Notes: generated by a model not told the origin, from the letters alone. A stretch of DNA of 64,000 bases from an uncultured bacterium (GCA_964589175.1 CAZPRY010000016.1:5559-69558), one strand, 5' to 3'; positions 23,381 through 64,000 are shown, counted from the stretch's first letter. Translations and numbers: made by a program.

Positions 23381-23388
23381 ATAATGGC

Positions 23389-40871: not shown

Positions 40872-41048
40872 CCTAAGAAATGAAACCATAACCAGTCCTG
40901 TGAGAGGAACGATTACGGTGATAGATTGTAAAAATAATCAACTGTCAGGCAAAGGTTTTGAGAGAAAATCCTGACCGTAATGGGAAAGGTTATTGCACAT
41001 TTAACAGAATACACAATATCGAAGGTAAAATAAGTTGGCGGTAATGTT

Positions 41049-47364: not shown

Positions 47365-50274
47365 CTATTTCAACAGCGTCACTTTTTGGGTGGCGGTGCG
47401 GTCCCCATTTTTCAGGATGATAAAATAGATTCCCGACTGCAGCGGTTCCTGGGCGGCTGTCATCCCGTCCCAATAGAAATGATAACGCCCGGGTTGCGTC
47501 GATCCCATCGAGAGGGCGTAGACTTCGCGGCCGGTCACATCGACAATTCGAACGGATGTCTCTCCCGCCCTGTCCAGTTCGAAGACCAGGTTGGTGCCGG
47601 GATTGAAGGGATTAGGATAATTCGGTTCCAGCCGGAATTCATAGGCCATCGGTTCGGAATCGCCCTGTACCAATTGCGTGAGAATTCCGCCCTCCGGCAT
47701 TTCCAATTCCCGGTCAGTGTAGAGGCGCAATTCGCCCGGACGCAGATAAAACGTATGCGCGCCGTCCGGGACATCCATCTGCTCACCGCGAAAATACTCG
47801 TACCATCTCCCGGAATGCGGAAACTGCAGGGTCGCCGTCTGCGCCACCACGTCGAAGTTTCCAAGGACCGCAGCGCACATGCCCTGATGGGTGAGAGTGA
47901 TACTTTTAACCTCTTTATCCACATCCATGATCAGGCTGGTCTGATCGCTGAAGAAGACTTCCTGCTCGCGGCGCAGTTTGATCAGCGCCTGGAAAATTTT
48001 ATACAGGTTCTCGCGATTCGGATGATGAGGATAGTCCCAGACAATCGGCTTTTCGCCGAGACGGCTGTTGTAGTCGATCGAGAAGTCGTAGCCGACCTCT
48101 CCGAATTGCCAAATCATTTTGGGCCCCGGAATGGTGAAAAAAAACGGCGCCGCCAGTTTGATACGGTTCAACGCCGTCGGTAAATCCTTAACCTGATACA
48201 CTCCGCTGCCGTTGCCGTATTGCAGGTTCTTGTACATCTGGCGCTCCTCGTCGTGGCTTTCCATATAGGTGACCAGGTTGGCGCGGGACCAGCCGCGTGT
48301 CCCGTAATAGGCCCAGGACAGGTCCGACTTCCCGTAGTCCGAACCGGTTTTATGGTAGCCCATCGTGGCTTCATTGTAATTATCGGTCATCTTGCCCCAG
48401 AGCAGCATCCCGGCGTCGGCCAACTCCGTCTCTTCGCGGTTCTCGCCCAGGTGCTCCAGGATGATGTAGGCCTCCGGATCGAATTCCCGAATGCGATCAG
48501 CCATGCGTTTAAGCAGGGCGATCCTGGAAGCATTGTAATTGTAAAAATCGCCGGTCTGCATAAAACCCTTGGAAAGATCGAAACGGAAACCATCTACTTT
48601 ATACTCCCTCAGCCAGAAGGCGTTCACACGATCGACAAAAGCCTGGGTTGCCGGGCTCTCGTGATTGAAATCGTAGCCTACATTGTAAGGATGTTTTTCG
48701 ACGGGATTGAACCAGGGACTCTCGGGTGCCGGGCGCTTATTGGCCTGGTCCCAGTAGAGCCGCACCATCGGCGACTGGCCGAAGGAGTGGTTCAGCACCA
48801 TATCCAGGATGACGGCAATCCCGCGCCGGTGGCACTCGTCGATCAGGGCCTTCAAATCCCCGGCCGGGCCGTAATATTTATCGAGTGCGAAATAGAAAGA
48901 GGGATTATAGCCCCAGCTGGAATTGCCTTCAAATTCGTTGACCGGCATCAGTTCGATGGCATTGACGCCCAAACGCTCTATATAATTCAACGTATCCTGC
49001 AATGTCTTAAAATCATGAGCCCGCAGGAAATCGCGCAGTAGAATTTCATAGATGATCAGTTCCTCTTTATGCGGCCGCTGAAAGTCCATGCTCTGCCACT
49101 CGAATTCCGCTTCATCGATCTTCAATGTCGAAACAATCTCGGAAGTCTTGCCATCCGGGTAAGCCGGCAGGTTCGGGTAGGTGCTGCTCGTGATATACCG
49201 ATCGTTCCAGGGATCGAGAACTGTATGTGTATACGGATCGGCAATGCGCAAGCTGCCGTCTACCAGGTACTGAAATCCGTATTCCTTATCCGGGTTCAAA
49301 CCGGGAATCTCGAGCCACCAATAGACGCTGTCCGCATCGACTGTGTAACGCTGCATGAAATAGTCGGTGTCCACCCTCCAGTCATTAAAATCGCCGATTA
49401 CGTAGACAAATTCCTTGTACGGCGCGAACAGGGTCAGGATCAGTCGGTCGTCATCGATGATATTGATTCCGCTACGGCAACCCATCGGCAGCGGTGCTTC
49501 GGAAACCGGCGGATTGACCACCACATAGAATGATATGCTATCCGTCTCTGCGGCCGTGCCGACTACAACCGCCGTGATTTCTATAGAACCCTGAATCTCC
49601 GTTGCGGGTAAAAAATCGTACACCAGCACCGTATCGGCCGCCTCGGCTTGCAGTTCACCATCGATAAATATCTGTAGTTTGTTGATCTGGGTGCCGATCG
49701 CCGCCGCTTTCAAAACAATCCGCACGGCCTCGCCGGCCTTGGCGAATACCGGCGAACGCAGGGGATCTCCGTAAGACAAATCGATTCGTGGCTCGTCGAT
49801 AATCACAGTCAGTCCCGGCTCATACAGGTCCAGAAAGATATCTGCTCCGCCAATGTCCTTTCCTTCTCGCGAGCCGTCCGCGTTGCGAAAGACAAAAGCC
49901 AACTTCAGGATTTTCTCGCTGGCGGGGATATGCGCTCCGCTGCTGTGATCAACATAATAGTCGCGCGGATAGCCGATTGAAAGTTTCCACAGGTTACCGC
50001 TTACGCGCTCGAGTTTGTTTTTGGAGAGGTTGGCATTGCCGCTGCCGGGCCAGGGCGAGACCACGTATTTCCAGACGGTACTCTTATCCGTGATTACACC
50101 GGTATGAGCATAGACGTCGCCCGTAAAATCCTTCAACCCGGCGTTGCCCTGGGCAGCATCGAAATAGACTACGATCGCGTCGTTCTGCGTTGCAAATTCG
50201 GGATCGGACCAGACAACCGGAGCGCTCCGGACTATTTCGATCAATAAAAAGCAGAGAATCGATATTTTTTTCAT
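47365..50274 (-). CDS. Secreted GH13 alpha-amylase-family glycosidase with T9SS type-A-like C-terminal domain
   Basis: IELMPVNEF..SWGYNP, DMVLNH, DGFRFDLSKG, ILEH, ESHDE; C-terminal NYPNPFNP...SGIYF...KVTLLK. Confidence 0.93.
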   Translation of the reverse strand: MKKISILCFLLIEIVRSAPVVWSDPEFATQNDAIVVYFDAAQGNAGLKDFTGDVYAHTGVITDKSTVWKYVVSPWPGSGNANLSKNKLERVSGNLWKLSIGYPRDYYVDHSSGAHIPASEKILKLAFVFRNADGSREGKDIGGADIFLDLYEPGLTVIIDEPRIDLSYGDPLRSPVFAKAGEAVRIVLKAAAIGTQINKLQIFIDGELQAEAADTVLVYDFLPATEIQGSIEITAVVVGTAAETDSISFYVVVNPPVSEAPLPMGCRSGINIIDDDRLILTLFAPYKEFVYVIGDFNDWRVDTDYFMQRYTVDADSVYWWLEIPGLNPDKEYGFQYLVDGSLRIADPYTHTVLDPWNDRYITSSTYPNLPAYPDGKTSEIVSTLKIDEAEFEWQSMDFQRPHKEELIIYEILLRDFLRAHDFKTLQDTLNYIERLGVNAIELMPVNEFEGNSSWGYNPSFYFALDKYYGPAGDLKALIDECHRRGIAVILDMVLNHSFGQSPMVRLYWDQANKRPAPESPWFNPVEKHPYNVGYDFNHESPATQAFVDRVNAFWLREYKVDGFRFDLSKGFMQTGDFYNYNASRIALLKRMADRIREFDPEAYIILEHLGENREETELADAGMLLWGKMTDNYNEATMGYHKTGSDYGKSDLSWAYYGTRGWSRANLVTYMESHDEERQMYKNLQYGNGSGVYQVKDLPTALNRIKLAAPFFFTIPGPKMIWQFGEVGYDFSIDYNSRLGEKPIVWDYPHHPNRENLYKIFQALIKLRREQEVFFSDQTSLIMDVDKEVKSITLTHQGMCAAVLGNFDVVAQTATLQFPHSGRWYEYFRGEQMDVPDGAHTFYLRPGELRLYTDRELEMPEGGILTQLVQGDSEPMAYEFRLEPNYPNPFNPGTNLVFELDRAGETSVRIVDVTGREVYALSMGSTQPGRYHFYWDGMTAAQEPLQSGIYFIILKNGDRTATQKVTLLK

Positions 50275-50364
50275 TCTATCAACCTGCGGATTTCATGGAT
50301 TTAGCATTACTGCGGCTGGCTATCCGGCGGGATAAAAGGATCACCCCGCAAGTCAGTAAACGCG

Positions 50365-51177
50365 TCACCCGATACTTTTACGAATCATTTGTTCGAGATA
50401 ATCGTTTTTCTCCGGCATGAGTTTCTCAACGGTTTTACTGACATTCAGTTTTTTGCGCTGCCCGAAGAGCGTAATGTCGAGAATGATGTAATTGGTCGCA
50501 ATACTGAGGACGGCTTTGTTCTGCGTCCAGATTGCCTGCTCGTCGACTTCGATGTTGGCGGGTCCCATGATGAGCTCCCGCCCATCCACGACCAGAATGA
50601 TCTTATGATCCCAGATGCGAACCAGTTTCTCCTCGGGGATGCCGTAAGAGAATACCTTTCCGAATTTCTGATCGATATCCGTAAAGGAGAAAATAACGAT
50701 TTCCACTCCGCGGCGTTTGGCCGCCAGAAGCGCTTTCTCGAGTTGCTTGATTTCCCGGCTCCACCCGGAGATATAGATGGTCTGAGCAGCATCCCGGATC
50801 AGCGCGTCGCAGGTCTGGACCAGGGACTCATAGCCGTTGATATTCCAGAAGCCCTCATTCTCAGGCCGGCTGTTGAACATTGCCAGTTCTTTCTTCAGGG
50901 AAGATAATCGCGATGAAAAATCCGTCGCCAGGCGCGAAAACAGTTGCTTGGGCGAGAGCGGAATATATTTACGTGGTTTCTCGTGAATGGAGATCACCAC
51001 TCCGCGCGCCTCCAGTTTGCGTAAAACGGCATAGATCACCGACCTTGGGACCTCGACTTCCTTGCTCACCTCGTATCCGGTCGCCGGATTGTGATTAAGG
51101 AGTCCCAGGTAGGTCTTGGCCTCGTAGGAGGTGAATCCCAATCGAACCATACGATTTACTAAATCATCTGGTAACAT
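50365..51177 (-). CDS. TrmB-family transcriptional regulator
   Basis: LGFTSYEAKTYLGLL...TGYEVSK..VPRSVIY.VL.KL wHTH, plus C-terminal effector domain. Confidence 0.9.
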   Translation of the reverse strand: MLPDDLVNRMVRLGFTSYEAKTYLGLLNHNPATGYEVSKEVEVPRSVIYAVLRKLEARGVVISIHEKPRKYIPLSPKQLFSRLATDFSSRLSSLKKELAMFNSRPENEGFWNINGYESLVQTCDALIRDAAQTIYISGWSREIKQLEKALLAAKRRGVEIVIFSFTDIDQKFGKVFSYGIPEEKLVRIWDHKIILVVDGRELIMGPANIEVDEQAIWTQNKAVLSIATNYIILDITLFGQRKKLNVSKTVEKLMPEKNDYLEQMIRKSIG

Positions 51178-51304
51178 TTACCGTAATCTCCCTGTATAAT
51201 TCCGTTGTCTCTTATCGTTCCGAATCGCCGGCTCCCGAAAGAATCGTCGATAAAAGCCAAGACCGATTCGGGATTCAATCTGACCTCCTGCCGACCATGC
51301 ACGA

Positions 51305-53113
51305 CTAATCTTCCTTAACCTCCGTGGATAAATGCCTGAACCATGAGAAATAAAGGATTATCGACAGAACGATTACTACCGTCAGCAGAATGGCAAAGGT
51401 ATCGAAGCGTTTCATAACCAGCACCAACCACATCATGAACAGGCAAACCTGCCATGGCACAGCTATAAAAGTCGAGAAGATATCACGCCGGTTTTCTGCT
51501 TTTACCTGGCTCCTGAATTTATCCGAGAAATGCGCGCGGACGGGATTCCAGAAACCAAAAGGACGGGTAACCTTGTAAAAATTTTGCAGCACCTTGTCAT
51601 CTGTCGGCTGCGTCAGAAATGTGCCGATAATGGTTCCCGCCAGGGCCATTCCAGCCGCAAACAGGAAGGCGAAATATTCCTCGGTTCCTTCCGGCATCAC
51701 CAGTTTCCAGATGATCGAAGCCAGCATACCGCTAGCCATACCGATGGCGTAGCCATAGCCGTTCAGTCGCCACCAATACCAGCGAATCAGTTGCGGAATG
51801 ATCAATCCCGCCCCGATGCTCATCGTGATCCAGCCCCAAATTTCGTTGATATTACGGATAAACAGCATCATGACCAGTCCCACCAGAATGATCAGGATGG
51901 AGGCGCTGTAACTCTGCGTCATTTGCTTTTTATCAGAAGCCTTGGGATTGATATAAACAAGGTAGATATCCTTGACCCAGTAGGCCGCCCCGGCATTCAC
52001 GGTCGAATCGAAAGTCGACATAGCCGCGGCCATCAACCCGGCTACGAGGAAACCTTTGACGCCGATCGGTAATTGGCTCACCACCAGCGGTAAAACCATT
52101 TCCGGGTCATGCACCTGGCCCGCCAAAGACACACCCCAGACCGCCAGCGCGCCGATAAAGGGCCAGCGAAAGGAGAGCAGAAAGGTCCAGAAAAGGGAGA
52201 GCAATCCGGCTTCCCGGTCGCTTTTAGCCGCGAAATAGCGCTGGATCATGTAGCCGCCGGTGCCGCCGCTGCCTTCGATCACGACCTTGAAAATATAGAA
52301 CATGATTGCGATCCCGAATAAATTGTACATCGAGTAGAGGCTCGCCGAATCCATTCCCAGCTTCCAGTGCGGCAGTACGCTCGTCCACTCTTTATAATTC
52401 GTCGCAAATGACTTGAAGCCGCCGCCCGCGACTTCACGAATCGGCATGGATACCGCGAACTGTTCCGGCAAATGAATCCCAAAAGATTTGGTAACGACAA
52501 AGATGATCGCCAGAAAAATGAGGGTTCCCTGAAATACGTCGGTCCAAACGACTCCGTAAAACCCCGACGCAACCGTATAGATGGAGGCAATCAGAATCAG
52601 TATCGAAGCCGCCCAGAATTCCGACGGCAAGCCCAGCCAGGCATGAATTCCGAGAATCCTGTCCAAAAATTTCCCGCCGCCGATGGCAAAATAGGTGATC
52701 ATCGCCACTGTCACGATGATAGAGGTGATGGCGGTGATCAGGCGCGCCAGCCGTCCTTCACGGTCATCCCCGAATCGGAATTGCATCCATTCTGCGAGGG
52801 TCATCACGTTCGCGCGACGGTTCCATTTGCCCATGAAAATCATCAAAAACGCCATGATCAGCGTGACGCCGCCCCGGATTTCGATATAGAATCCCTTCGA
52901 ACCCAGCGCATAAATCAGCGCTACGATGATCATGGTCCCGCTGATATCCAGGTTCGAGGCCATTCCGGAAGCTCCGAGCACCCACCAGGGCAGGTTGCGG
53001 TTCCCCAGGAAATAGGAATCGATCCCATTCGAAGCTTTACGCTGAAAATAGAGGCCGACGATAACCAGCCCGACGATATACACAAATACGATCGCGAAAT
53101 CAATAAAAGTCAT
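51305..53113 (-). CDS. Sodium:solute symporter (probable sugar)
   Basis: YFLGNRNLPWW, GVVWTD, QRYFAAKS, AAAMSTFDS; many TM helices. Confidence 0.9.
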   Translation of the reverse strand: MTFIDFAIVFVYIVGLVIVGLYFQRKASNGIDSYFLGNRNLPWWVLGASGMASNLDISGTMIIVALIYALGSKGFYIEIRGGVTLIMAFLMIFMGKWNRRANVMTLAEWMQFRFGDDREGRLARLITAITSIIVTVAMITYFAIGGGKFLDRILGIHAWLGLPSEFWAASILILIASIYTVASGFYGVVWTDVFQGTLIFLAIIFVVTKSFGIHLPEQFAVSMPIREVAGGGFKSFATNYKEWTSVLPHWKLGMDSASLYSMYNLFGIAIMFYIFKVVIEGSGGTGGYMIQRYFAAKSDREAGLLSLFWTFLLSFRWPFIGALAVWGVSLAGQVHDPEMVLPLVVSQLPIGVKGFLVAGLMAAAMSTFDSTVNAGAAYWVKDIYLVYINPKASDKKQMTQSYSASILIILVGLVMMLFIRNINEIWGWITMSIGAGLIIPQLIRWYWWRLNGYGYAIGMASGMLASIIWKLVMPEGTEEYFAFLFAAGMALAGTIIGTFLTQPTDDKVLQNFYKVTRPFGFWNPVRAHFSDKFRSQVKAENRRDIFSTFIAVPWQVCLFMMWLVLVMKRFDTFAILLTVVIVLSIILYFSWFRHLSTEVKED

Positions 53114-53188
53114 GAATTACTCCCCGATTGTAATTTCCATTTCATCAAATGAGGTTCACTATTTCTCTCAGTAAACTAAGCGTTTAAA

Positions 53189-54586
53189 TCAACGGTAAAG
53201 TTCCTGTAACCGATCATCAAAAATCCGGACCGCGGTTTGCGTTCGATGGTCCTGCAGATATTCAGCCCGCCGCTTGCGCCATTGCTGCAGGCGGTACAGG
53301 TAGACATCTTCATCCGTAAAATTAGCGCGCCTCTCCACGGGCGTATCCTCGAACAACAGCTGCGTCTCCGCCCGGGCCAGCCAGTCATTGGAACGCAGCC
53401 GCACCTGTGCGCGCACCTCCGGCCGGCGGTCCAACCCTTCCCGGTAAGCCTTCTGCGCCAGGATGTCATTGCGCAGGGCAAAGGCCACGGCCTTGTCCAT
53501 TTCATACAAAACAAACTGAACCGGCAATTCCGGTATGCGTTTCACGAAATCGGCGACCGTCCACTCGCCGCCTCGGTAATGAATCAGCGTATCCTGCAGC
53601 AGGTCGGACAGGCGCAGGCTTATTTTACCCAGTTCATTGGCCGGAATCTTTTGGAGCTGTAAATCCTCGGGATAAAGCACATCCCGGTAATAGCTTTTAA
53701 TTTGCGCGGCCACCAATCGCAGAAGCGGCACATTGAGCTGCAAGTGCTGATCCCGCATATAATTTGACAGGTAGCCCGCCAGTTTCTCCTCGCCGTAGAT
53801 GCGCTGCAATTTGGGGCGTTCTTTGACGCAGAAATGCTCATAATCAAGCCGGGATGGAATCAGGTCACGCCGGATGGCCTCAAGCTTGACGATATGCCAG
53901 CCGAATTTGCTCTGAAACGGTTTCGAAATTCCGCCCTCCTGCAACTGATAGAGGACATTCTCAAACTGCAAATCGGTATCGCCCCAGGAAATCCATCCCA
54001 GCAGCCCACCATTGCGCTGCAACGTGGAATCCCGGAATACCTCGGACGCCAGCTGCTCGAAAGTAGATCCCTGCGATGTCAATTTGCGATATAACACTTC
54101 GATTGCCTGCCGGTCCTTAGCATAGAGGTGCCGCGCCAGGCGGCTCTCCCGGGAGCGCCGGAAGGCTTCCCGCAGCTGGTTCTCATCGACTTCGATCCCT
54201 TCCCGAATCCGATCGAACTGCAGTTCGCGCATGGCCTCGCGTTCGGCCATCTCGCGTTGATAGCGAAATACGGCCAGAGTATCCAGATGCTCCATCCGGG
54301 CGGTTTGGGCCAGCAGGTATGCATCGGTCATCTGTTGTAAATGCATCCTTCGGTTTTCCGGACTATCCGCCTGCGAAGATCGCAGCATAGCCAGCTCATA
54401 AGATTTTTTAAACTGAAACACCGTAATCGTATCCTCGCCGATGATCGCCAGCGCCTTCTGATCTGCATTCGGTACCGGTTTTTCGGTTCGCGAACAGGTC
54501 GGAACCATTAAAAGCCAAAGCAGCGGGATCACAAACCAGATAACACTGCCGATCTTCCGCTGTTTTACGTTCGCTAGGTTTTTCAC
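53189..54586 (-). CDS. Parvulin-type peptidyl-prolyl isomerase (SurA/PrsA-like)
   Basis: ARHL, FEQLA, GGLLGW, ISKPFQSKFGWHIVKL; GTG start overlaps the upstream stop. Confidence 0.85.
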   Translation of the reverse strand: MKNLANVKQRKIGSVIWFVIPLLWLLMVPTCSRTEKPVPNADQKALAIIGEDTITVFQFKKSYELAMLRSSQADSPENRRMHLQQMTDAYLLAQTARMEHLDTLAVFRYQREMAEREAMRELQFDRIREGIEVDENQLREAFRRSRESRLARHLYAKDRQAIEVLYRKLTSQGSTFEQLASEVFRDSTLQRNGGLLGWISWGDTDLQFENVLYQLQEGGISKPFQSKFGWHIVKLEAIRRDLIPSRLDYEHFCVKERPKLQRIYGEEKLAGYLSNYMRDQHLQLNVPLLRLVAAQIKSYYRDVLYPEDLQLQKIPANELGKISLRLSDLLQDTLIHYRGGEWTVADFVKRIPELPVQFVLYEMDKAVAFALRNDILAQKAYREGLDRRPEVRAQVRLRSNDWLARAETQLLFEDTPVERRANFTDEDVYLYRLQQWRKRRAEYLQDHRTQTAVRIFDDRLQELYR

Positions 54587-55605
54587 TTGAAATTGATACT
54601 CGTTGCAAAATGATGGACATCGGTCAGGTGATCGAATCCCTGGAAAGCATAATCGAACTGAATCGCGAGATTCGAACGCATTCTGAAAACTACTCCCGTG
54701 CCGAAGGTCAGGCCCTGTTCTTTGTAATCACCCTGGAACATATTCTTCCAACCAGCCCGCAACGAAAAAAGATCGTACAGCGTGTATTCGACACCCAGGT
54801 TGGCCATTTTGACGTTGTCGCTGGGATAGACGCCGTCGGCGGCCAGCCAGACTTTGTGATTTTTGGTATCCATGACTGGCATCGCCGCCCCGATCCGGAA
54901 AACCAGCGGCATGTTCCATTGGTCGGTCCGCAGTTCGGAGATGATCTTCTCGTTATTGCCGTAGATCGATTCATCGATGTCATGAAAGGCAAAGAGGTCG
55001 CGACCGGTCATCTGCATCTTGCTGCCGAAATTATTGATGCTGATCCCGAGACGCATATCGTTAAAACGCGTGATGTACAGGGTACCGACATCCAGCGCCA
55101 GCCCTTCAGCCTTCTCGTTATAGATCGACTGGGCGATATATTTCACTGTCGCGCCGATACTGAACCGATCGGTCAGGTTCCGCGCAAAAGAGAGTCCCAG
55201 CGAGATATCGTTGGCCGAGAAAACTTCACCTGTGCCGTAAGGATTTTCAATCGTGGTCACCTGCATTTCGCCGTAGTCTACGAAAGTCACGCTGACACCC
55301 AATGCGCCCACGGCCGGCAGTTGATAAATCACCGAAGCGTACTGGATATTGATGTCGGCAAACCAGTTCAAATAACTAAAATAGGCGGAATTCTTCTCGC
55401 TCCGCGAGATCGAACCAACATTCCACAAGATGCCCGATCCGTCATCCGAGACGCCCCCGAAGGCTGCTCCCATCGCCACCGCTTTGGCGCCGATTTCAAG
55501 ACCCAGAAAAGGCGCCGCCGAAGTGCCGACCTTACTCTGCGCGGATACCGTCTGCATCGACAGCAGGGCCGCTAAGGCCAAATAAATGATAGATGCTCGT
55601 TTCAT
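54583..55605 (-). CDS. PorV/PorQ-family outer membrane barrel
   Basis: KVGTSAAPFL..EIGAKAVAMG.A, FSIGATVKYI, ALDVGTLY, PLVFRIG, GVEY...SLRAG. Confidence 0.85.
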   Translation of the reverse strand: MKRASIIYLALAALLSMQTVSAQSKVGTSAAPFLGLEIGAKAVAMGAAFGGVSDDGSGILWNVGSISRSEKNSAYFSYLNWFADINIQYASVIYQLPAVGALGVSVTFVDYGEMQVTTIENPYGTGEVFSANDISLGLSFARNLTDRFSIGATVKYIAQSIYNEKAEGLALDVGTLYITRFNDMRLGISINNFGSKMQMTGRDLFAFHDIDESIYGNNEKIISELRTDQWNMPLVFRIGAAMPVMDTKNHKVWLAADGVYPSDNVKMANLGVEYTLYDLFSLRAGWKNMFQGDYKEQGLTFGTGVVFRMRSNLAIQFDYAFQGFDHLTDVHHFATSINFK

Positions 55606-55627
55606 CTTCTATGTCCTTTGTTTTAGT

Positions 55628-58600
55628 TCAACGTATAATCGCCAGTTTGCCGGTCTTCTCACCGAGAGTACTACTGGTGATATGATAAATATAGATGCCG
55701 AAGGCCACCTTTTTGCCGGACTCGTTCAACAGATCCCAGGCAAGCGTACCGTCGAAAATATCACCGGTGTGCTGTAGTTTGCGAACCAAGTCGCCGCGCA
55801 CCGTATAAATGCGCAAAACCGCATCGGCCGTCAGATTGATAAACGCTACTTTATTCGGGAAATTGCCGGGCAGATCAGGCGAATAATCCCAGGAAGCCGA
55901 AACGATATAAGGATTGGGGACGACGCTGAAATTGCTCCAGCCGTCATCCGTGACAAGACCCTGGGAAGCTGCAAGCGTACTGAAGCGATAATTATCATCG
56001 CTGCTAAACTTGATGGTCGTCGCGACATCGAGAAAATCTCCGTCCGCGTAGCGGTATTTTTCCGTGATGGAGATGTCATAGATCCAGAGCGTATCGTCAC
56101 CGGTCGAATGCCAGACCACCTGCAAATTGCCGGCTTGATCGATCTCGATCGGAATTTTCAGCTCCGTAAAGCTCTGCCCGACGGTGAAGGTCGTGTTCTG
56201 CCCCCCGATTCCGAAGGATAAACTCTGCTCGCTGGTGGATTTCATCCAGCCTTTAAAATAAAACAGGCCCGGATTCAGCAGCGTATCGCTCTTCAAAGTC
56301 ACATTCACCGGATTGGCCTGAGAGGGCACAAGGACGTTATCGTCCCAGTACACGATCGTCGCGTCGCCGGCTTTCAGTGGGGGCAGATTTTTCGAACCGC
56401 TAACCCGCTCGTAGAGGATCGTGCTGTCCGGGTCCTGCCAGTAAAAAAGTCCGCCTTTATCGGCCGCCTGCAGCGAAATCAGGTTTGCGCTGTCGAAAAT
56501 GAGTTTGATGTACCAGCTGGACTTATAGGGATAATTCACCGGGTTGGTGGTTTTATCCAGCGTATCCTCAAACAACGGATAGAGGATGAAGTCATCCTTA
56601 CCGGTGACTGCGCGGTAGGCAACCTTCACATCCTTATTCCCGATCATATCGAAGACTTTCAATTTGACGGGTCGCGCGTTGAGGGTCACAAAACCGGACT
56701 TATAAGATTGCGAAGTGTCGACAATCTCGTCATAAAATGTCAGGCGGTACCTGACCGGAAAGCGATTCCCGCTAAGATCCGAAAGATTCATCAGGATTTC
56801 GGGGTGGGCCAGGTCGCTTCCCGACCAGCGGATACTATCCGGGATGATATTAATCCGGTCGGCATTGGTCAACTGCAGGCGCAGGCCCTCGAATACCGGC
56901 GAAGGTTTATCGATCGACGAGACATAGGCAAGCAGGGTATCGCCGGTTGTCACATTGCGCACCCCGTAAGCCGTCGTCTTCTTGGCGAAGAAATCGATCG
57001 TCGAGGTCAACGCGTAATTGGGATCGGTGGACGAATCATAGAAATAAATCTCGTATTCGGAATCATTCACAATCTTCCTGTCATCGACGATGTCCAGGCT
57101 GACGCTGCCGGTAGCATGGCCGGTATGGATAATCCCCGCGGAGTTCAAAGCGGCCGGCTGGTAGCCCTTGCTGTACGGATTCGGAATCGCCATTACCGTA
57201 TTCGAATCGAACACGTACCGGTCGGATTCCAGCGTAATACGTTTGCTGCCTTCCGACGGTAAAATATTGAACAGCGAATCGCCGGAATCGTAGGCCACGA
57301 CCGCATAGAAATAGCGCTGGCCGTTGTTCACGCTCGTATCCACATAGGTGTACTGAAGCCCGGAATTACTGCCCAGGTACTGGGCCAGGCCGGCGCTGCC
57401 ATCCAGGAAACTCTTGGCGAATTGACCGTTCATCAGTGAATAGCTATCTCCCGAAGGCGCTTCCAATGTGATGTCCAATTCGTAGAGCCAGGGATGGGCG
57501 ATGTCCAGAGTGACCCGGAAATCGTCCCAGTTTTGCGACGCTCCCTCAACATCGATCGCGGTCGAAACTTCGGGATACAGGTTCAGGCCCCATTTGCTGT
57601 TGCCGATCATAACCAGGCTGTCCAGGATGAATTCCCCCTGACCCTTCCATTCGTCGGCGTTCACGTCGACCCGGTAGAAGAAGATACCGTCCTGCATATC
57701 TTCCGGGGCATCGAAACTGCGCGAAAAATACTGATAGGTGTTCTTGTTGACAGTACTCTCAACACCGTACTGCCGGAATTCTTTGACCACTTGATTCGGC
57801 TGGTAGGCCCGGTAGCCGGGAGCAACGACAATCCCGGGATCATTCTCATAGATTTTCGTCTTCCACTCGTAATGGGCGCCCGGCACCACGCGCGACAGGC
57901 GCTGGTAGACTTCCTGGGTCATATATTCGGCCGTTGAAGCCCGGAACTGGTCCACATACAGAACAGTGCCCTGGCCATTTCCGACGTACAGGTTTGCGCT
58001 GGTCAGACGGCTGTTGAGACGCCGGTAATAATGCAGTTCCGTCGTATTAGCCGGAATGAGGCCGAGATCCACTACTTTTTCCTGACCGTTATTCAACGAC
58101 AGGTAAAGATGACCGTTCGGGGTTCTGTTCTCAGAGGCGATCCGGACGGTGAACGCCACCCAGGTGTTCGGCTCAAACTGGCTGGCCGTCGCCAGATTCC
58201 AGCACAGGCCGGAGTTGGAATTAGAGTTGATTTTCATCGTCAGCCAGCCGCTGGAAAGCGACGCGTATTCTGCCACCCAGCCGAGAGCGACTGCGGCATT
58301 ATCCGTCAGTTGATCCCAACCGGTTGTATCGGCCGGTTCCTCGAAATCACCGTTATCGATGCGGTTCTTGGTACTGACCTCCCAGAAATTATCGATTGAG
58401 ATCTTGAGCGCGTCGCCTGTCGCCGCCTCGTTGGGGCTATGTTCAAAAAACATACTCTCGGGCTGGTAGCGCTCCCAGCTTTCTGGATCGGTTTTAGCCG
58501 CATCCGCAAAACGGTTGAAACCCGAATTTTCCACCACGTTCAGATCGGTGATCGTACCCTTGTGTCTGACATAGCCGGTATCGCCCGCTGCTTTAAAACC

Positions 58601-59191
58601 GATTTCCCAGTTGACCAGCTGGCCGGAGTTTTTGGAGGTATCGGCATCGGCGATATGCAGTCGCCAGCTGCCGTTGCCGGATTCGCCGAACAGCTCCGCG
58701 GGCATGTCCATCGGCTGGATATCCGGGTAAAACGGCGGGAGTGAATTGTCAAACGTATTCTCGCTGGAGTTCGTAAAAACCAGGGGGATTCCCAACCCGC
58801 TATTGCCTTTGAAATAGCCTTCGATCTTATTGAATTTATCGAATACAACCAGCGGTTTGTAATACAGTTTGTGCCCAAGTCCGTCGGTGATAGAGTGGAC
58901 TTCCTCAAATTCGTAGTCGGTTGCCCGGTAGATTTTGTAGCCCTCGAAATTGTTCCATTTGGCGGGAACATCCGGGTAAAGCTTCTGCAAAACACTGTCA
59001 ATATCGCTCTCGGGTTTGGCGTTCCAGTACACCTTCACAAAGCCGTCGCCCGGAACGGCATCCACATCCGGATTCGTGGGCGACACGGGCTCAAGATACT
59101 GGGCCTGCCCCAAACTGATCATAAACACAATTGTACCCAGCGCCCGGGAAAATCCTTTCATAACGAAGTCCTTGTTGATCTTTCTTATCAT
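55628..59191 (-). CDS. Large secreted protein: Fn3-like core, inserted P-domain and CBM-like modules, VVPNPY-type C-terminal domain
   Basis: ATG 59191 overlaps the upstream stop (ATGA); alternative start 59161. Motifs AVPGDG.V.VYW, FEGYKIYRATD, YFYAVVAYD, SVVPNPY...GKLAIIR. Confidence 0.85.
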   Translation of the reverse strand: MIRKINKDFVMKGFSRALGTIVFMISLGQAQYLEPVSPTNPDVDAVPGDGFVKVYWNAKPESDIDSVLQKLYPDVPAKWNNFEGYKIYRATDYEFEEVHSITDGLGHKLYYKPLVVFDKFNKIEGYFKGNSGLGIPLVFTNSSENTFDNSLPPFYPDIQPMDMPAELFGESGNGSWRLHIADADTSKNSGQLVNWEIGFKAAGDTGYVRHKGTITDLNVVENSGFNRFADAAKTDPESWERYQPESMFFEHSPNEAATGDALKISIDNFWEVSTKNRIDNGDFEEPADTTGWDQLTDNAAVALGWVAEYASLSSGWLTMKINSNSNSGLCWNLATASQFEPNTWVAFTVRIASENRTPNGHLYLSLNNGQEKVVDLGLIPANTTELHYYRRLNSRLTSANLYVGNGQGTVLYVDQFRASTAEYMTQEVYQRLSRVVPGAHYEWKTKIYENDPGIVVAPGYRAYQPNQVVKEFRQYGVESTVNKNTYQYFSRSFDAPEDMQDGIFFYRVDVNADEWKGQGEFILDSLVMIGNSKWGLNLYPEVSTAIDVEGASQNWDDFRVTLDIAHPWLYELDITLEAPSGDSYSLMNGQFAKSFLDGSAGLAQYLGSNSGLQYTYVDTSVNNGQRYFYAVVAYDSGDSLFNILPSEGSKRITLESDRYVFDSNTVMAIPNPYSKGYQPAALNSAGIIHTGHATGSVSLDIVDDRKIVNDSEYEIYFYDSSTDPNYALTSTIDFFAKKTTAYGVRNVTTGDTLLAYVSSIDKPSPVFEGLRLQLTNADRINIIPDSIRWSGSDLAHPEILMNLSDLSGNRFPVRYRLTFYDEIVDTSQSYKSGFVTLNARPVKLKVFDMIGNKDVKVAYRAVTGKDDFILYPLFEDTLDKTTNPVNYPYKSSWYIKLIFDSANLISLQAADKGGLFYWQDPDSTILYERVSGSKNLPPLKAGDATIVYWDDNVLVPSQANPVNVTLKSDTLLNPGLFYFKGWMKSTSEQSLSFGIGGQNTTFTVGQSFTELKIPIEIDQAGNLQVVWHSTGDDTLWIYDISITEKYRYADGDFLDVATTIKFSSDDNYRFSTLAASQGLVTDDGWSNFSVVPNPYIVSASWDYSPDLPGNFPNKVAFINLTADAVLRIYTVRGDLVRKLQHTGDIFDGTLAWDLLNESGKKVAFGIYIYHITSSTLGEKTGKLAIIR

Positions 59192-62100
59192 TTGATCACC
59201 GCAAATTTTCCAATAAAGTCTTCTTTCAAATTGGGTCCCGAGACATGAAAAACATAAACGCCGTAGGCAATCGGCAACCCATCGCGACTGAGCAGGTTCC
59301 ACGAAACCGCACCGCTCGTGTAGGAGCCGTTTTGACGGAGCGTCTGGACCAGATCGCCGCGCACGGAGTAAACTCGTATCGTTGATGCCACCGGAATATT
59401 GATGAAATCGATGCGCCGTTCCGCGCGTCCCTGTTCCAGGTTATTACGCGGTTCCCAGATGGCCGTACACAGGTAAGGATTGGGTACCACCGAAATCTTT
59501 CCCCGCTCGCGGGTGGCCACATCGGGGTCACTACGCGCACCGGTAATCGTGATCGTAAATTCATCAACCCGGCTGAGCGGTTTTTGCGTAGTAATGTTCA
59601 GATCAATTTGCGTTGCAGGCAGGGCAGCACCGGTCACCAATCCCCGAAAAGTCAGCATCCAGGTAGCGTGTTTCTGAACCGCATTCGGATTCGAAGCTGT
59701 GGCCGCCGGCAGCGATTCGAAGAAAACCAGGGTATCCTCTACTCCGAAGATTTGATCGCCGTTGTCGCGAACCGCCAGGTCGACAGCTTTGCCGCTGCGC
59801 AGGTTGCCGGCCGATACATTGATATCCATGCTTTCAAATTGTCCATAAGCGCCATCCGTTGCATACGAGGCGTAGGCAATGCTGCTGAACGTGAGCCTGT
59901 AATCATCCGGGACCTGGTGCCCGCCCATTCTCCATTTGCGCAATTGCGGCTCGACGGTGACACCGCTGCTGCTCCAGGTCAATGAGGACAGTTCCGCCAG
60001 CCAGGTATTATCAATGAAAAGTTGCATCCCCAAAGGATAATCCGGGATGGTCGTAAAACTTTTAGGAAATATCAGCGACGGCATTGTATTGAGTGAACGG
60101 GCGATATTCGCCAGGCTCTGATCATCAATACCGAAACGGCTGCTCTTATCCACAACGGTATCGATCACCGCCTGCCCGTCGGTATCCTGATGATAATCAT
60201 AAATCGCATAGTAGCTCGTGGTTCGCGCAAAAGCTTCGTCGGCGTCGCGCAGGGTCGGCGGAAAAATGAGCAGCGTATCTTTGGAGTCCTGGGCTGTTCT
60301 GAAGCGGATATTAATTAATTGGGTGTCGATGCTGGCGGCTATATAGATCAGTGAATCCCGGAATTGATACACCAGTGTATCTTCGCAATAGTCAAGGCCG
60401 TCGCCGTCATTGTCGACGCGATCCGTCGCAGTGTCCCAGAAATTGACATGAATTTCATGCTCGGTCTCGGCCGCCAGAACTCCCGGATTGATCAATTTAT
60501 AGAAGAGGTTGCCGTCGCCGTCACCACTGACCCGGGCCACGCCCCGCGACGTATCCGGAGGAATGTACCCGGCCACATTGGCGGTCGGTTGAATAACCAC
60601 CGTATTTTTATCGAGTAGAACCCGGCCGCCCAACTCCTGAATCGTCTTCGAGCATTCGGCCGGAAATATGGCGGTGCTGGCGTCACCGTGATCGTACGAG
60701 ACGACGGCATAATAGTAATTCATACCGTTGTTAACGGTCGTATCCGTATAGGTATAACGGAGACCGCTGTCATTGCCGAGGTAAAACGAGATTCCGCCCG
60801 TAAACGAGGCATCGCCCCGGTAGAATCCCTTGATCCCGTTTTTGAGGTCGAACTGGACAATCGGTTCGTAAAAATACTTGATCCCGTCGGCATTCGTGAT
60901 AGTGTTTACTTCGTTAAAACCGATGTCGGTGGCGCGATAAATTTTGTAGCCTTCGAAATCCTGTCCCAGCACCGGATCCACCGAGAACTCGGCCGCATTG
61001 TCCCAGTACAGCGTCACCCTCCCATCACCGGCAACCGCATGGACAATGGGTTTATCCGGAGGTCGTGTGAACTGGTAATTGTTGTCGTAAATCTGCTGAT
61101 TGATCTCCTTGTTGCGCAGGATATCTTCGAAATCTTCGCCGAACAGCAAAGCCATGGAGAAACGTTCACTGAAGCCGACCGGCAACGGAAAATAGCCTGA
61201 GCCATAGATAAAATCACCATCGGCCGGTTCTAAGACGATTTCATCGTAGTTACCCGGCGTCTGGCGTGTCCAGAGTTCACCGGGCGCCCCGCTGGACCAT
61301 TTATAATCGTCGCTCATGCGCACCTTGCCGGGTGGTGTAAAGTAATTGAAACTGGTCAGGCCGATCTGGTCGGACTCGTTGACGTCAACCCCATCGAAAT
61401 TGGGTTCACCGGCGGTCGGCACGCCGTCGCCTTCGCCGTCATCCGCCGATCCGGGAACACCATCGGCGCCGACATCATGCAACACGGCATCCCAATCGCC
61501 GTCGTTATCGATACCATCATTGCGGCGTTCATCGATCAACAGATCCTGCTTCCCGGCGCCCGTCAGATAATCCACATACTTCAGCGGCGGCAGCGGTTCA
61601 AAACCTTCCCCGCGGTTGCGGCGGTTATAGTAATGCGTATAGTAATCTTCATCGATGATGCCGTTGAGATTGTCATCGATCAGGTTACCGACAATATCTT
61701 CCAGCGCCAACCCGGCGTTCAGAATGATGCGCTTGCCGCCGGTGTAGACCGTATCCGGAAAACTTTCGATCGTATGGATTTCCCGCTCATAGGTATTCGG
61801 CGCAATCAGGATCACCCGGTCGCCCACCTGGTAGGTTCGCGGTAAAAAGGTGGATTCAGACATGTATGGCGACGCGGCATCGTGGCTGTCGCCGTCGTTA
61901 TCGATACCGTCGAAGGGATTACCCGGGCTTTCCAGGAAAGCGTATCCGGCGTAACCCACCGGTCCGTCATAACAGGGACTGTAAGCGGGCGGAGCGTCCC
62001 AGCTGTAGGTGATATCGTTCTCGTTATCGAAGAAAGAGAGATCGTCCTGGGCGTCGATATGATCGTTGCAGCGCCCACCGCTCAATGACCCGACCATCAT

Positions 62101-63045
62101 TCCGAATGTCACTTTGGGGTAGTTGGTGGTGCCGTTGTTGTTCACTTCGTACAACCAGTAGATGATATCTTCCGCCAGGAAGTGTGACCACTGCAATCCG
62201 CGTACCGATACCTTGAGGGCCGAACCGTACTTGGCCGGATTCATGGAATCGGGCATAAAAACCCGGGGACCGTCACCCTGGTAGAAAAAATTAAACTCCC
62301 CGTCCTTGGAATCATCCATCACAAAATAGGATTCCTGGTCCGCCGCCATGACACCGCGTCCGAAATAACCGTTCCAATAGGGTACCCCGGTCGGATCCAC
62401 CCAACTGGGTTTATCGGGCCAGAACCAGGGCCATGTATCCGGCTTTCCATCTTCATCATTATCGAGATCGTCGGAAAGGGCGATACTCTCCTGCCTCTCA
62501 TCGGCATAACCGGGCAATGGCTCCAGCGTCCAGGTAATCTGTCCGCTGCCGGGGCCGTCCGTCCAGCCGCGCGGACCATCGGAAGTCGCCACAGAAGTCA
62601 CCGTATCCGCAAATCGGACATAAAGCGTATCGTTGCTCTGGCGATGCGATTGATAGTCCGGCCGGCGCATGAGTTTTGTGAGAGAATCGAGGCCCGAAAT
62701 CTGGTAGTCGATTCCACTGATGGTTCCGGTGCTGCTGTTGTATAAAAATCTCCATTCCCAGCTGCGCGCCAATTGAACGCCGAAGAGCGGACTGACATCC
62801 CCGACATAGTTATTGCCGCTGCCCCGCGGCCATTCGCCTTCGGGGCTGGTGCCGGTCACATCCCCGGCTACCAAACCGGTATTGCGAAAGAGGGTCCTGA
62901 CTTTATTGCCGTTATGGATGCCCTCCTTGCGATAGGTTCGGTCACCCAGGGCTTCCGTATTCTGGGCAGCGAGATATTGGCTAAAAACGGATAAAACAAT
63001 GAAAGCGATAAAGTACTTTTTCATGGATTTCATGCTTATTCTCAT
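59188..63045 (-). CDS. Large secreted protein with DGxDNDGD Ca-binding-like repeats, Fn3-like core and VVPNPY-type C-terminal domain
   Basis: Signal peptide (likely start 63024), HNGNKVRT.F.N.G, EWPRGSG, DGIDNDGD repeats, AGDGRVTLYW, FEGYKIYRATD, SVVPNPY...GKFAVIK. Confidence 0.88.
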   Translation of the reverse strand: MRISMKSMKKYFIAFIVLSVFSQYLAAQNTEALGDRTYRKEGIHNGNKVRTLFRNTGLVAGDVTGTSPEGEWPRGSGNNYVGDVSPLFGVQLARSWEWRFLYNSSTGTISGIDYQISGLDSLTKLMRRPDYQSHRQSNDTLYVRFADTVTSVATSDGPRGWTDGPGSGQITWTLEPLPGYADERQESIALSDDLDNDEDGKPDTWPWFWPDKPSWVDPTGVPYWNGYFGRGVMAADQESYFVMDDSKDGEFNFFYQGDGPRVFMPDSMNPAKYGSALKVSVRGLQWSHFLAEDIIYWLYEVNNNGTTNYPKVTFGMMVGSLSGGRCNDHIDAQDDLSFFDNENDITYSWDAPPAYSPCYDGPVGYAGYAFLESPGNPFDGIDNDGDSHDAASPYMSESTFLPRTYQVGDRVILIAPNTYEREIHTIESFPDTVYTGGKRIILNAGLALEDIVGNLIDDNLNGIIDEDYYTHYYNRRNRGEGFEPLPPLKYVDYLTGAGKQDLLIDERRNDGIDNDGDWDAVLHDVGADGVPGSADDGEGDGVPTAGEPNFDGVDVNESDQIGLTSFNYFTPPGKVRMSDDYKWSSGAPGELWTRQTPGNYDEIVLEPADGDFIYGSGYFPLPVGFSERFSMALLFGEDFEDILRNKEINQQIYDNNYQFTRPPDKPIVHAVAGDGRVTLYWDNAAEFSVDPVLGQDFEGYKIYRATDIGFNEVNTITNADGIKYFYEPIVQFDLKNGIKGFYRGDASFTGGISFYLGNDSGLRYTYTDTTVNNGMNYYYAVVSYDHGDASTAIFPAECSKTIQELGGRVLLDKNTVVIQPTANVAGYIPPDTSRGVARVSGDGDGNLFYKLINPGVLAAETEHEIHVNFWDTATDRVDNDGDGLDYCEDTLVYQFRDSLIYIAASIDTQLINIRFRTAQDSKDTLLIFPPTLRDADEAFARTTSYYAIYDYHQDTDGQAVIDTVVDKSSRFGIDDQSLANIARSLNTMPSLIFPKSFTTIPDYPLGMQLFIDNTWLAELSSLTWSSSGVTVEPQLRKWRMGGHQVPDDYRLTFSSIAYASYATDGAYGQFESMDINVSAGNLRSGKAVDLAVRDNGDQIFGVEDTLVFFESLPAATASNPNAVQKHATWMLTFRGLVTGAALPATQIDLNITTQKPLSRVDEFTITITGARSDPDVATRERGKISVVPNPYLCTAIWEPRNNLEQGRAERRIDFINIPVASTIRVYSVRGDLVQTLRQNGSYTSGAVSWNLLSRDGLPIAYGVYVFHVSGPNLKEDFIGKFAVIK

Positions 63046-63052
63046 ACCACTG

Positions 63053-64000
63053 TTAAAAGTCTACCTGATAGCCAAAGGTGATACGCATCGGGCTGCTGTA
63101 GCGGGACGGATCGTTGAAGTACTCCCGCAGCGAGTTAATCGCCTGCCCGAACTCACCATGATGGAAGGTGTTCTCGACCTGTGTATAGGTCGAGCGCCCG
63201 CTATCACCATAAACATTGGTTTCGTTCAATGCGTCAAAGAGATTATTGATTTTGGTATAGATCGTGTGATCCAAACCGAAAATCCGGAAGGTCTTGGTGG
63301 CTTTAAAATCCACATTCGTATAAAACGGTTTGCGGCCATCGTTTCTCAGGAAGGGCGAAGGCGTGCTGCGCGATTCGGCGTTGTACGGCAGGCCGCTGCC
63401 CAGCGTCATGAGGAAACTCGCCGTCCAGTTACCGGGATTGCCAAGAACCACGTTGGCGTTCAGCGTATGACGGCGATCCCAGTCCAGCGGCAGAATTTGC
63501 TTCTCAATTTCCGTTCCCGAAGTCAAACGGCTGATGCCCGCGTTGGGATCGGAACCGGTTCCCTCGGCAATTTGAAAAGTGTAGTCGATGCTGAAGCTGT
63601 AGCCGGTGTCGAAGCGGCGGCGCAACTGCAGCGTAATGCCGCGGATGCTGGCGAACTCGGAATTGATATACTGATCGTAGAGGCGGCCGTCCCGGGCTTT
63701 CACGCGGCGTTCCTTGTTGATCCAACCGCGCACATCGCGTACATAATAATCGATATTGGCCTTGATATTGCTCCCCAGTTGCTGTTGCAAACCGATCTCA
63801 TAACTAATGGTCTGCTCGGCTTCCAAATCCGGATTGCCCATCGTCTCGATGGCCGAAATATCGTTACCAAGTTCCCATTCCGGGTTGGTGTACAAATTTT
63901 CAAAATTAGGGATCTGAAAGAAATGACCGTAAGAAATGTGAATCACGCCCTGGTCGGTGATCGGATAGGCCAATCCCAGCCGCGGGCTGATCTGCACTTT
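63053..64000 (-). CDS. TonB-dependent receptor, C-terminal part (gene starts beyond the window)
   Basis: ISPRLGLAYPI, SYGHFFQ.P, GNPDL.AEQT.SYEIG, LDWDRRH, INNLFD..N, terminal F. Confidence 0.92.
   Translation of the reverse strand, partial: KVQISPRLGLAYPITDQGVIHISYGHFFQIPNFENLYTNPEWELGNDISAIETMGNPDLEAEQTISYEIGLQQQLGSNIKANIDYYVRDVRGWINKERRVKARDGRLYDQYINSEFASIRGITLQLRRRFDTGYSFSIDYTFQIAEGTGSDPNAGISRLTSGTEIEKQILPLDWDRRHTLNANVVLGNPGNWTASFLMTLGSGLPYNAESRSTPSPFLRNDGRKPFYTNVDFKATKTFRIFGLDHTIYTKINNLFDALNETNVYGDSGRSTYTQVENTFHHGEFGQAINSLREYFNDPSRYSSPMRITFGYQVDF

Follow-up and report, generated by a model that had tools for sequence, protein, structure and literature searches.

How can a bacterium draw starch-type glucans to a TonB receptor when nothing encoded beside that receptor resembles SusD, the lipoprotein partner of SusC? 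The question is raised by 64,000 nucleotides of DNA from an uncultured bacterium (GCA_964589175.1, CAZPRY010000016.1:5559-69558), referred to below as the window, in which positions 47,365 to 64,000 carry, on the minus strand, genes for a TonB receptor, two giant proteins (here G1 and G2), an outer-membrane barrel, a parvulin, a sodium:solute symporter (SSS), a TrmB-family regulator and an enzyme of glycoside hydrolase (GH) family 13. A sequence-only reading of the window had proposed that the giants, type IX secretion system (T9SS) cargo, are held at the surface through their C-terminal domains (the tails) by a PorV-like barrel of their own, are folded by the parvulin and replace SusD, SusE and SusF in an alternative α-glucan uptake complex. 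The observation behind this proposal is confirmed here, and its interpretation is partly supported. With fair, though far from complete, confidence we regard the locus as a SusD-free operon for α-glucans of the starch, glycogen or pullulan type, whose surface proteins would be docked in a barrel beside the TonB receptor.

An operon without SusD

The genes form a single tight minus-strand operon whose transcription-start side, followed through gene calls and family matches, lies 9.3 kb past the right window edge. From 5′ to 3′ it encodes a GH13 with a lipoprotein-type signal, the TonB receptor, G1, G2, the barrel, the parvulin, the SSS carrier, the TrmB regulator and a secreted GH13, with intergenic gaps of 15, 7, -4, 22, -4, 75, 127 and 90 bp in transcription order; the 7 bp are the spacing between receptor and G1. 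Both overlapping junctions noticed from the sequence are exact, namely ATGA at 59188-59191 between G1 and G2 and GTGA at 54583-54586 between the barrel and the parvulin.

The C-terminal 315 amino acids (aa) of the receptor lie in the window (63053-64000, minus strand; PF00593, 78 bits on this part), and the full protein, which extends to G000:C16:71487, comprises 958 aa with CarboxypepD_reg, Plug and barrel domains (PF13620, PF07715 and PF00593). The protein is a TonB receptor, as had been supposed, and falls outside the SusC/RagA family: model TIGR04056 gives 73.8 bits against a cut-off of 368.25 and only model positions 2-209 are matched, within the N-terminal 200 aa of the receptor. No SusD family was detected on the proteins of the locus or among the genes upstream of the window, and PF07980 and PF14322 have no match in the genome (93.5% complete; a Bacteroides control was positive), in agreement with the absence of SusD claimed earlier.

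A tail resembling those of PorZ and PorU

G1 (59188-63045, minus strand) is a 1285-aa protein, predicted to be secreted to the surface, in which a signal peptide is followed by a supersandwich head, an FN3-like domain, a β-rich middle region and a PorZ-like tail. G2 (55628-59191, minus strand) has 1187 aa, or 1177 aa in the annotated form, which begins 10 codons later, and it gives a split alignment to G1. BLASTP supports the paralogy of the two giants over three stretches (E 3e-23, 6e-21 and 2e-19). Besides the C-terminal domain, the giants have the FN3-like domain and some of the middle region in common, so that the shared tail noted previously holds. The tail occupies residues ~1172-1285 of G1 (59191-59532, minus strand), with VVPNPY at residue 1186, a conserved E...GRGER loop and the end ...AVIK, and positions 55631-55960 (minus strand) in G2, with VVPNPY at residue 1090; the two are 34% identical over 137 aa.

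When 34 orthologous tails were compared with NCBIfam, the PorZ tail model (NF052228) was matched by 32 and the PorU tail model (NF033707) by 30, while type A was matched by 25 (best E 1.3e-4) and type B (TIGR04131) by one (E 0.13); for the first tail member, all of these matches are far below the curated cut-offs. The G1 tail itself fails the type-A model TIGR04183, with 15.4 bits against a cut-off of 23. In Pfam, CHU_C (PF13585) was found on 27 of the 34 tails (best E 7.5e-7) and Por_Secre_tail (PF18962) on 6, and neither window tail passes CHU_C (22.8 bits against a cut-off of 27 for G2, no match for G1). An iterated type-A hidden Markov model (HMM) built from this genome still gives the variant tails 36-59 bits, and judged by such profile scores the relatedness of the variant tails to type A is real. 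The G2 tail scores 114 bits on the variant-tail HMM against 52 on the type-A HMM. In structural comparison with VIA-align, the best match to an AlphaFold2 (AF2) model of G1 residues 640-1285 is the C-terminal domain of PorZ (5m11; Z 11.4, root-mean-square deviation (rmsd) 2.5, 92 residues aligned, 23% identity), and PorU (6za2) matches the G1 tail at Z 9.3.

The tail is, by profile comparison and by modelled fold, a diverged member of the type-A-like Ig fold that is nearest to PorZ and PorU. The C-terminal domain class of its own that had been proposed for the giants has to be corrected accordingly: the tail fails the curated type-A and type-B models, yet it does not stand wholly apart from the known classes. 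Its distinguishing mark is an extra loop of ~15 residues after VVPNPY, with an invariant Glu and GRG.R in 34 of 34 tails; in G1 this loop (residues ~1192-1210) is modelled at pLDDT < 50, and it may serve another partner, for example the receptor or lipopolysaccharide. According to the sections available of a review (PMC10202324), the tails of PorU and PorZ remain uncleaved and bind PorV and PorQ. By analogy, the tails of G1 and G2 would likewise be retained after export.

A co-encoded barrel and its predicted interface with the tail

The barrel (54583-55605, minus strand; 340 aa with a signal peptide) passes the PorV/PorQ family model NF033709 over its full length, with 204.7 bits against a cut-off of 90. 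It fails both equivalog models, reaching 114.7 of 220 bits for PorQ (NF033711) and 81.9 of 250 bits for PorV (NF033710). The family assignment made from the sequence is therefore sound, although the label PorV-like has to be adjusted, as the barrel scores nearer PorQ than PorV.

An interface between the tail and the barrel, implied by the sequence-only reading, was predicted in complex models of barrel residues 21-340 and the 135-aa G1 tail, each supplied with a 34-row alignment. The ipSAE values are 0.89, 0.89 and 0.90, and the best of three controls gave 0.00; the runs share at least 92% of contacts, and the partner pLDDT is at least 67. Among solved complexes, 58 of 80 attain the ipSAE mark applied here, as do 2 of 110 mismatched pairs; these counts are rough given the custom alignments. 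On the tail side, the modelled interface includes three strands (VVPNP, IRVYSVRGD and GVYVFHV) and the C-terminal ...AVIK, and on the barrel side it involves many barrel strands together with the N-terminal segment. These models indicate that the G1 tail probably docks in the co-encoded barrel, as the G2 tail would. Tail and barrel identities among the paralogs of this genome are also correlated (18 pairs, Mantel r 0.59, a value reached by 0 of 5000 permutations); the cassettes duplicate and diverge as units, a correlation that is by itself no proof of binding.

A recurrent receptor, surface-protein and barrel unit

A tail HMM built from two sequences retrieved ~29 open reading frames (ORFs) in this genome at E < 1e-7, and each ORF was assigned to whichever HMM, variant or type-A, scored higher. 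Within 300 bp and on the same strand, a TonB receptor or a PorV-like gene adjoins 25 of 28 variant-tail ORFs, compared with 18 of 150 type-A-tail ORFs (Fisher p 7e-16). The association of the tail with receptors and barrels is far beyond chance, and the genome-wide co-location that had been put forward as a check is thereby established. The genome contains 26 PorV/PorQ-like paralogs (E < 1e-20) and 44 receptor matches, and ~25 receptor-protein(-barrel) cassettes can be recognized in it.

The association extends across phyla. When one genome per species was scanned, 585 of 600 matched stretches were confirmed, and the best 80 loci were analysed, their ORFs being labelled with HMMs built from the proteins of this genome. 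Represented among these loci are Neomarinimicrobiota, Ignavibacteriota (including Melioribacteraceae), Calditrichota, KSB1, Cloacimonetes, Kryptonium and Stahlbacteria, together with metagenome-assembled genomes that bear assorted Bacteroidota labels. The receptor is directly 5′ of G1 in 70 of 74 assessable loci; the remaining four follow the order receptor, barrel, G1, with a parvulin directly after G1 in three of them. A PorV-like gene is directly 3′ of G1 in 60 of 66 assessable loci, and in the other six this place is taken by a parvulin (three), a G2-like gene (two) or neither (one). Among 101 evenly sampled genomes of the phylum, the G1 head occurs in 91 (E ≤ 1e-20) and SusD in 16.

The parvulin is a looser companion. 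The protein encoded in the window (53189-54586, minus strand; 465 aa) carries a PPIC-type rotamase domain (PF00639, 64.2 bits) and a weak SurA-N-like region below cut-off (SurA_N_3, 16.9 bits), and it has a probable lipoprotein signal, as judged from a Cys after an N-terminal hydrophobic stretch. All four close parvulin paralogs of this genome are in or beside G1-type cassettes (contigs C16, C4, C1 and C65), and a parvulin lies within 10 kb in 22 of the 80 related loci. It is from gene association that we infer a foldase or chaperone role for the giants or the barrels.

Architecture of G1 and G2

G1 as a whole matches no Pfam or NCBIfam model. At least 2970 relatives were found among 8000 candidates scored, those source names shown being all 'hypothetical protein' or absent, and a precomputed Pfam domain is present on just one of 120 listed relatives. 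The nearest relative (76% identity) is labelled Candidatus Marinimicrobia. AF2 models of residues 1-800 (pLDDT 76.6, pTM 0.77) and 640-1285 (pLDDT 72.9, pTM 0.66) are nearly all β, and a helical catalytic domain is absent from them.

Based on the AF2 model and VIA-align, the head (residues ~28-660; 61066-62964, minus strand) is a galactose-mutarotase-like β-supersandwich, a fold of sugar-handling enzymes. Its closest match is the N-terminal region of dextran dextrinase (9ju0; Z 18.6, rmsd 3.3, 261 residues aligned), followed by the N-domains of a glucodextranase and a bacterial glucoamylase (1ulv and 1lf6; Z 17.3), by GH94 and GH65 phosphorylases (Z 13-17) and by free-standing galactose-mutarotase-like proteins (Z ~13). 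Foldseek of the head model against the PDB yielded nothing convincing (TM < 0.2), and the fold was recovered only by the wide VIA-align search. The β-supersandwich flanks catalytic domains in many carbohydrate enzymes. The head further displays long Asp-rich loop insertions and many invariant Asp, Glu and Trp residues.

Downstream of the head, the FN3-like domain (residues ~659-823; 60577-61071, minus strand; FN3 structural matches at Z ~10) is common to G1, G2 and the ~700-aa cassette proteins of this genome, as phmmer searches against the paralogs revealed; the smaller proteins are made up of three parts, a variable head, this domain and the tail. G2 is built on the same scaffold of FN3, middle and tail, with ~440 aa inserted within the FN3-like domain. 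Its family scores are 42.4 bits for P_proprotein and, both below cut-off, 22.8 bits for CHU_C and 27.5 bits for the PorZ tail. Just five full-length relatives were found, all close kin, and by these searches G2 is a lineage-specific second surface protein. The insert was considered as a carbohydrate-binding module (CBM), and no such claim is made, for the ESM Atlas score for CBM_4_9 is 0.78 (below the 0.9 guide) and Pfam at E ≤ 1 matches one of six orthologues (E 0.076).

In the G2 orthologues, the P_proprotein match appears in swapped order, with profile positions 54-85 at residues ~156-198 and positions 3-58 at ~558-609. This arrangement points to either a nested insertion or a circular permutation within the FN3-like domain that is interrupted here. 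Signal peptides are predicted for G1, G2 and the barrel alike, and in each of them Gln follows the predicted cleavage site (LAA/QNT in G1, GQA/QYL in G2 and VSA/QSK in the barrel). This recalls the 'Q-rule', which, according to the abstract of PMC5837995, holds for Bacteroidetes and not for the whole FCB group.

Glucan-active neighbours and paralogous cassettes

Two enzymes of the operon are assigned to GH13 by PF00128. The window enzyme (47365-50274, minus strand; 969 aa, secreted) scores 90.5 bits, with CBM_48 at 23.3 bits and a type-A T9SS tail (TIGR04183, 35.9 bits, cut-off 23) that has NYPNPFNP near residue 885. The second (160.8 bits), which precedes the receptor gene past the window edge, is a 611-aa protein with a lipoprotein-type signal, whose best NCBIfam models, of the maltodextrin glucosidase and cyclomaltodextrinase types, are both below cut-off. 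Only five GH13-like genes are present in the 4.4 Mb of this genome.

Among the 80 related loci, GH13 is found in 25, and in 17 of the 32 that span at least 22 kb; GH31 occurs in five. A type-A-tail protein lies directly after the barrel in 40 loci, and scanning 11 such proteins revealed CBM20 in six (two above cut-off) and a GH66 of the dextranase type in one. GH94 or PF10091 is present in six loci, none of which contains GH13. This comparative context of GH13, CBM20, GH66 and GH31 neighbours fits α-glucan use, the substrate that the sequence-only reading had named. It also carries hints that some G1 orthologues may serve dextran rather than starch. In a Calditrichota locus (L017:14603-16402), the gene after the barrel encodes a GH66 (598 bits) on which no T9SS tail was detected. 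A group of unlabelled neighbours, 'cluster 0', was set aside, as it is held together by type-A tails and its tail-free representative has no relative in this genome.

Other G1-type cassettes of this genome stand beside different enzymes, namely a GH26 with a CBM9 protein (contig C1), GH5 and MGH1-like genes (C4) and GH94 with PF10091 (C47). A FastTree phylogeny was computed for 41 heads, comprising those from 36 of the 80 loci (head match of at least 500 aa in one piece; the other 44 loci were filtered out) and five paralogs from this genome. The own paralogs fall outside the supported 35-row clade that holds the window G1. Because the paralogs adjoin other enzymes and fall outside the window clade, the heads appear to be specialised by substrate, with the window orthogroup as the putative α-glucan version.

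The cassette at G000:C4:116435-128036 (L085), which adjoins the GH5 and MGH1-like genes, consists of a receptor, two G1-type proteins of ~1,100 aa, a parvulin and a barrel. The tails of both its giants score alike on the two HMMs, at 162.4 and 49.7 bits, and since these scores are identical the duplication looks recent. At G000:C10:4851-14778, a GH13-like gene lies ~2 kb 5′ of a small cassette (receptor, 618-aa tail protein and barrel), which may be a second α-glucan module in this genome.

Proposed mechanism and alternatives

In the operon as we read it, G1 and G2 would be exported by Sec and then by the T9SS, and their uncleaved PorZ/PorU-like tails would dock in the PorQ-like barrel, by which the two proteins would be held at the surface beside the receptor. 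There the supersandwich head of G1, and probably also the jelly-roll insert of G2, would capture glucan chains, which the T9SS-secreted GH13 with its CBM48 would cleave; the oligosaccharides would enter via the TonB receptor and be trimmed by the GH13 lipoprotein, and the SSS carrier would move sugar across the inner membrane. TrmB would control the operon, and the parvulin lipoprotein would assist the large cargo or the barrels in the periplasm. The scheme starts from the gene content, the conserved order, the tail class, the predicted tail-barrel interface, the head fold and the glucan-enzyme context, and from these we infer the contact of G1 with the receptor, the binding of glycan and its specificity. 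The giants would touch the receptor, or even act as its lid, in the place taken elsewhere by SusD, SusE and SusF.

A wider reading, which we hold to be slightly less likely than not, is that of a three-part glycan importer, different from SusCD, in Marinimicrobia, Ignavibacteriota, Calditrichota, KSB1 and related phyla. In it, a protein exported by the T9SS, its uncleaved PorZ-type tail plugged into a dedicated PorQ-like barrel, would cap or feed the receptor; the heads would be substrate-diversified, and G1 would represent the α-glucan version. If this holds, the T9SS would also build complexes for nutrient uptake, and anchoring without a lipid could be either a sister or a forerunner of the SusD lipoprotein solution.

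Several points weigh against a barrel-docked α-glucan complex of this kind. A SusD-family gene is, after all, carried by 16 of the 101 sampled genomes of the phylum, and carbohydrate-specific TonB receptors of Proteobacteria function without a lid. GH13 is absent from 55 of the 80 loci, many contigs being short, and on the 41-head tree the GH13 label is unclustered, with 10 changes against a shuffled mean of 11.8. Structures of PorV have been solved (6h3i and six 8gl entries), and the complex score may in part reflect likeness to them; the GRGER loop that defines the tail class, itself poorly modelled, takes no part in the confidently predicted interface; and one barrel for two giants leaves the stoichiometry unexplained. 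The supersandwich fold alone reveals no function, and no sugar-binding site was located in the G1 head. Lastly, the RNA-library contigs described below could reflect DNA carry-over.

Some of the same evidence can be read differently. The receptor might work alone, with G1 and G2 merely co-regulated T9SS cargo, glucan-binding proteins at the surface or set free from it, and the barrel a secretion shuttle dedicated to this tail class in the way PorP/SprF is to type-B tails, so that there would be neither a permanent anchor nor an uptake complex. This is compatible with a complex model that shows contact between tail and barrel only and with a receptor outside the SusC/RagA family, and there are known cases of PorV-like barrels that serve one class of cargo (PMC10202324, in the sections available). 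Co-regulation, however, does not need a spacing as tight as that of the receptor, which is directly 5′ of G1 in 70 of 74 loci and 7 bp away in the window; even in the remaining four, the barrel is directly 5′ of G1 and the receptor just before the barrel. Given also the ~25 receptor-protein(-barrel) cassettes in one genome and a tail that is nearer to the retained PorZ/PorU tails than to cleaved cargo tails, we consider a lone receptor unlikely.

We attach still less probability to G1 being an enzyme, with a head that is a new catalytic domain (for instance a glycanase, lyase or transglycosylase) acting on glucans at the cell surface. The very strong conservation of the head, its many invariant Asp and Glu residues and the fact that its structural neighbours are nearly all carbohydrate-active enzymes would accord with catalysis, for which the mutarotase fold is used in some families. 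Yet in the best matches (GH15, GH65 and GH94) it is the non-catalytic N-terminal supersandwich that aligns, G1 has no counterpart of their helical catalytic domain, and many of the invariant acidic residues sit in Asp-rich loops, which from their motifs we take to be typical of calcium sites. Finally, the barrel could be a FadL-type channel for a small hydrophobic or sugar-derived compound, its adjacency to tail proteins being incidental, a suggestion prompted by the description of PorV as a FadL homologue in the part of PMC12578637 consulted. That a barrel passing the PorV/PorQ family model at 204.7 bits, co-diverging with the adjacent tails and having a confident predicted tail interface (against 0.00 for the best control) should be such a channel is highly improbable. 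The barrel-docked α-glucan operon thus remains our preferred reading.

Relation to known systems

The locus has much in common with SusC/SusD systems (RagA/RagB, starch Sus), including a large TonB receptor with an N-terminal carboxypeptidase-regulatory-like domain, a surface-protein gene immediately after it, a surrounding set of GH13 enzymes together with a regulator for sugars and an inner-membrane carrier, and many paralogous cassettes per genome beside different glycoside hydrolases. It differs from them in that it has no SusD homologue and its receptor fails the SusC/RagA model. Moreover, the partner here is no lipoprotein but a putative substrate of Sec and the T9SS that measures 700-1300 aa and ends in a sorting-type domain, and a third gene, that of the PorV/PorQ-family barrel, is part of the unit.

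The closest parallel for tail and barrel is offered by PorZ-PorQ and PorU-PorV of Porphyromonas gingivalis, since the tail is nearest to those of PorZ and PorU and the barrel is a PorQ-leaning member of the PorV/PorQ family. Unlike those pairs, which belong to the secretion machinery, the pairs described here are multi-copy, substrate-locus-specific and receptor-linked; their passenger domains show no relation to PorZ or PorU, the genome has separate PorU and PorZ-like genes, and the G1-type tail adds the conserved E...GRGER loop. A special tail class served by a dedicated barrel encoded beside its cargo is also a feature of Flavobacterium SprB/SprF, as the available text of PMC10202324 describes it. 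In contrast to the type-B/PorP/SprF arrangement, the present tail is not type B and the barrel passes the PorV/PorQ family model.

The module may have been encountered before under other names. In the portion consulted of the 2013 Melioribacter roseus paper (PLoS One, PMC3534657), the organism grows on starch and a 'sus operon', Mros0764-0758, is described as comprising two GH13 enzymes, one of them secreted and with CBM48, as well as a GH31 and the outer-membrane genes Mros0761-0759, three in number and named SusC, SusD and SusE. Its content and order, so far as given there, resemble the G1-type cassettes of Melioribacteraceae (L018, L049 and L063), and a tail-barrel anchoring module does not feature in that portion. 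By this analogy, 'SusD' and 'SusE' may be a G1-type protein and a PorV-like barrel that were named after the Sus system. M. roseus proteins are absent from the best 120 matches to a Melioribacteraceae orthologue. In its accessible part, the genome paper on Caldithrix abyssi reports that the organism grows on starch and does not mention the module (PMC5317091), a paper on the Bacteroidota BAM mentions PorV in passing only in the part consulted (PMC12578637), and no description of the module as a system was found in the literature searched.

In oceans, lakes and sediments, degraders belonging to Marinimicrobia (SAR406), Ignavibacteria and Calditrichota are abundant, and most of them are without SusD. 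The present locus is a useful entry point to their glycan uptake, as its substrate can be named from the two GH13 enzymes in the locus and from CBM20, GH66 and GH31 in orthologous loci; therefore, a complex of receptor, surface protein and barrel is testable with starch-type glucans. Besides a nameable substrate, this locus newly contributes the fold of the head, a complex prediction run with controls, the link to a parvulin, a further surface protein that is lineage-specific and a hint of RNA in situ. PorZ/PorQ-type pairing of tail and barrel would be extended from secretion machinery to nutrient uptake, and thousands of unnamed or 'hypothetical' proteins would gain a fold and a likely role.

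Host, secretion system and expression

The host, whose genome amounts to 4.43 Mb, appears to be a Marinimicrobia/Fidelibacterota-like bacterium. The T9SS core genes found in it include that for SprA, for which the sequence-only reading had advised a search, and one for PorU (772 bits); a PorZ-like gene scores 212.5 bits, below the cut-off of 260, and the best canonical PorV-like (contig C7) and PorQ-like (contig C1, near 199 kb) barrel candidates elsewhere in the genome are both below cut-off. Another PorV-like barrel is directly adjoined, at G000:C31:23742-29731, by a second protein of PorU type, 1671 aa long (237 + 99 bits on the PorU model, below cut-off).

The DNA is almost fully present in lake-water metagenome runs. 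In four lake-water RNA libraries, contigs cover 25, 25, 19 and 20 of 30 operon bins, and 103 of 114 contigs are at least 99% identical to the locus; a single contig spans the G1/G2 junction (58684-59375), and another single one the parvulin/barrel junction (54272-54746). The 5 to 11 uncovered bins are uninformative, and such contigs give neither level nor strand, so the libraries provide a hint of operon expression in situ.

Remaining genes of the window

The SSS carrier (51305-53113, minus strand; 602 aa; PF00474, 112.5 bits) is probably an inner-membrane sugar importer. The 270-aa TrmB-family regulator (50365-51177, minus strand) matches both the helix-turn-helix domain (PF01978, 76 bits) and the sugar-sensing domain (PF11495, 36.7 bits). 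Of the 80 related loci, 8 contain an SSS gene and 5 a TrmB gene. A second SSS gene (45932-47362, plus strand; PF00474, 280 bits) runs convergently towards the operon's end, a gap of 2 bp separating it from the GH13 stop.

The other genes of the window are unrelated, an RND efflux pump, a PAS hybrid kinase and MacB/FtsX permeases being among them, and so are the genes further upstream of the operon (tetrapyrrole methylase, aldehyde dehydrogenase and others). Stretches of low GC content (0.37-0.39) at 1-4000, 20001-24000 and 40001-42000, set in a window that otherwise ranges from 0.45 to 0.57, may be islands or foreign DNA.

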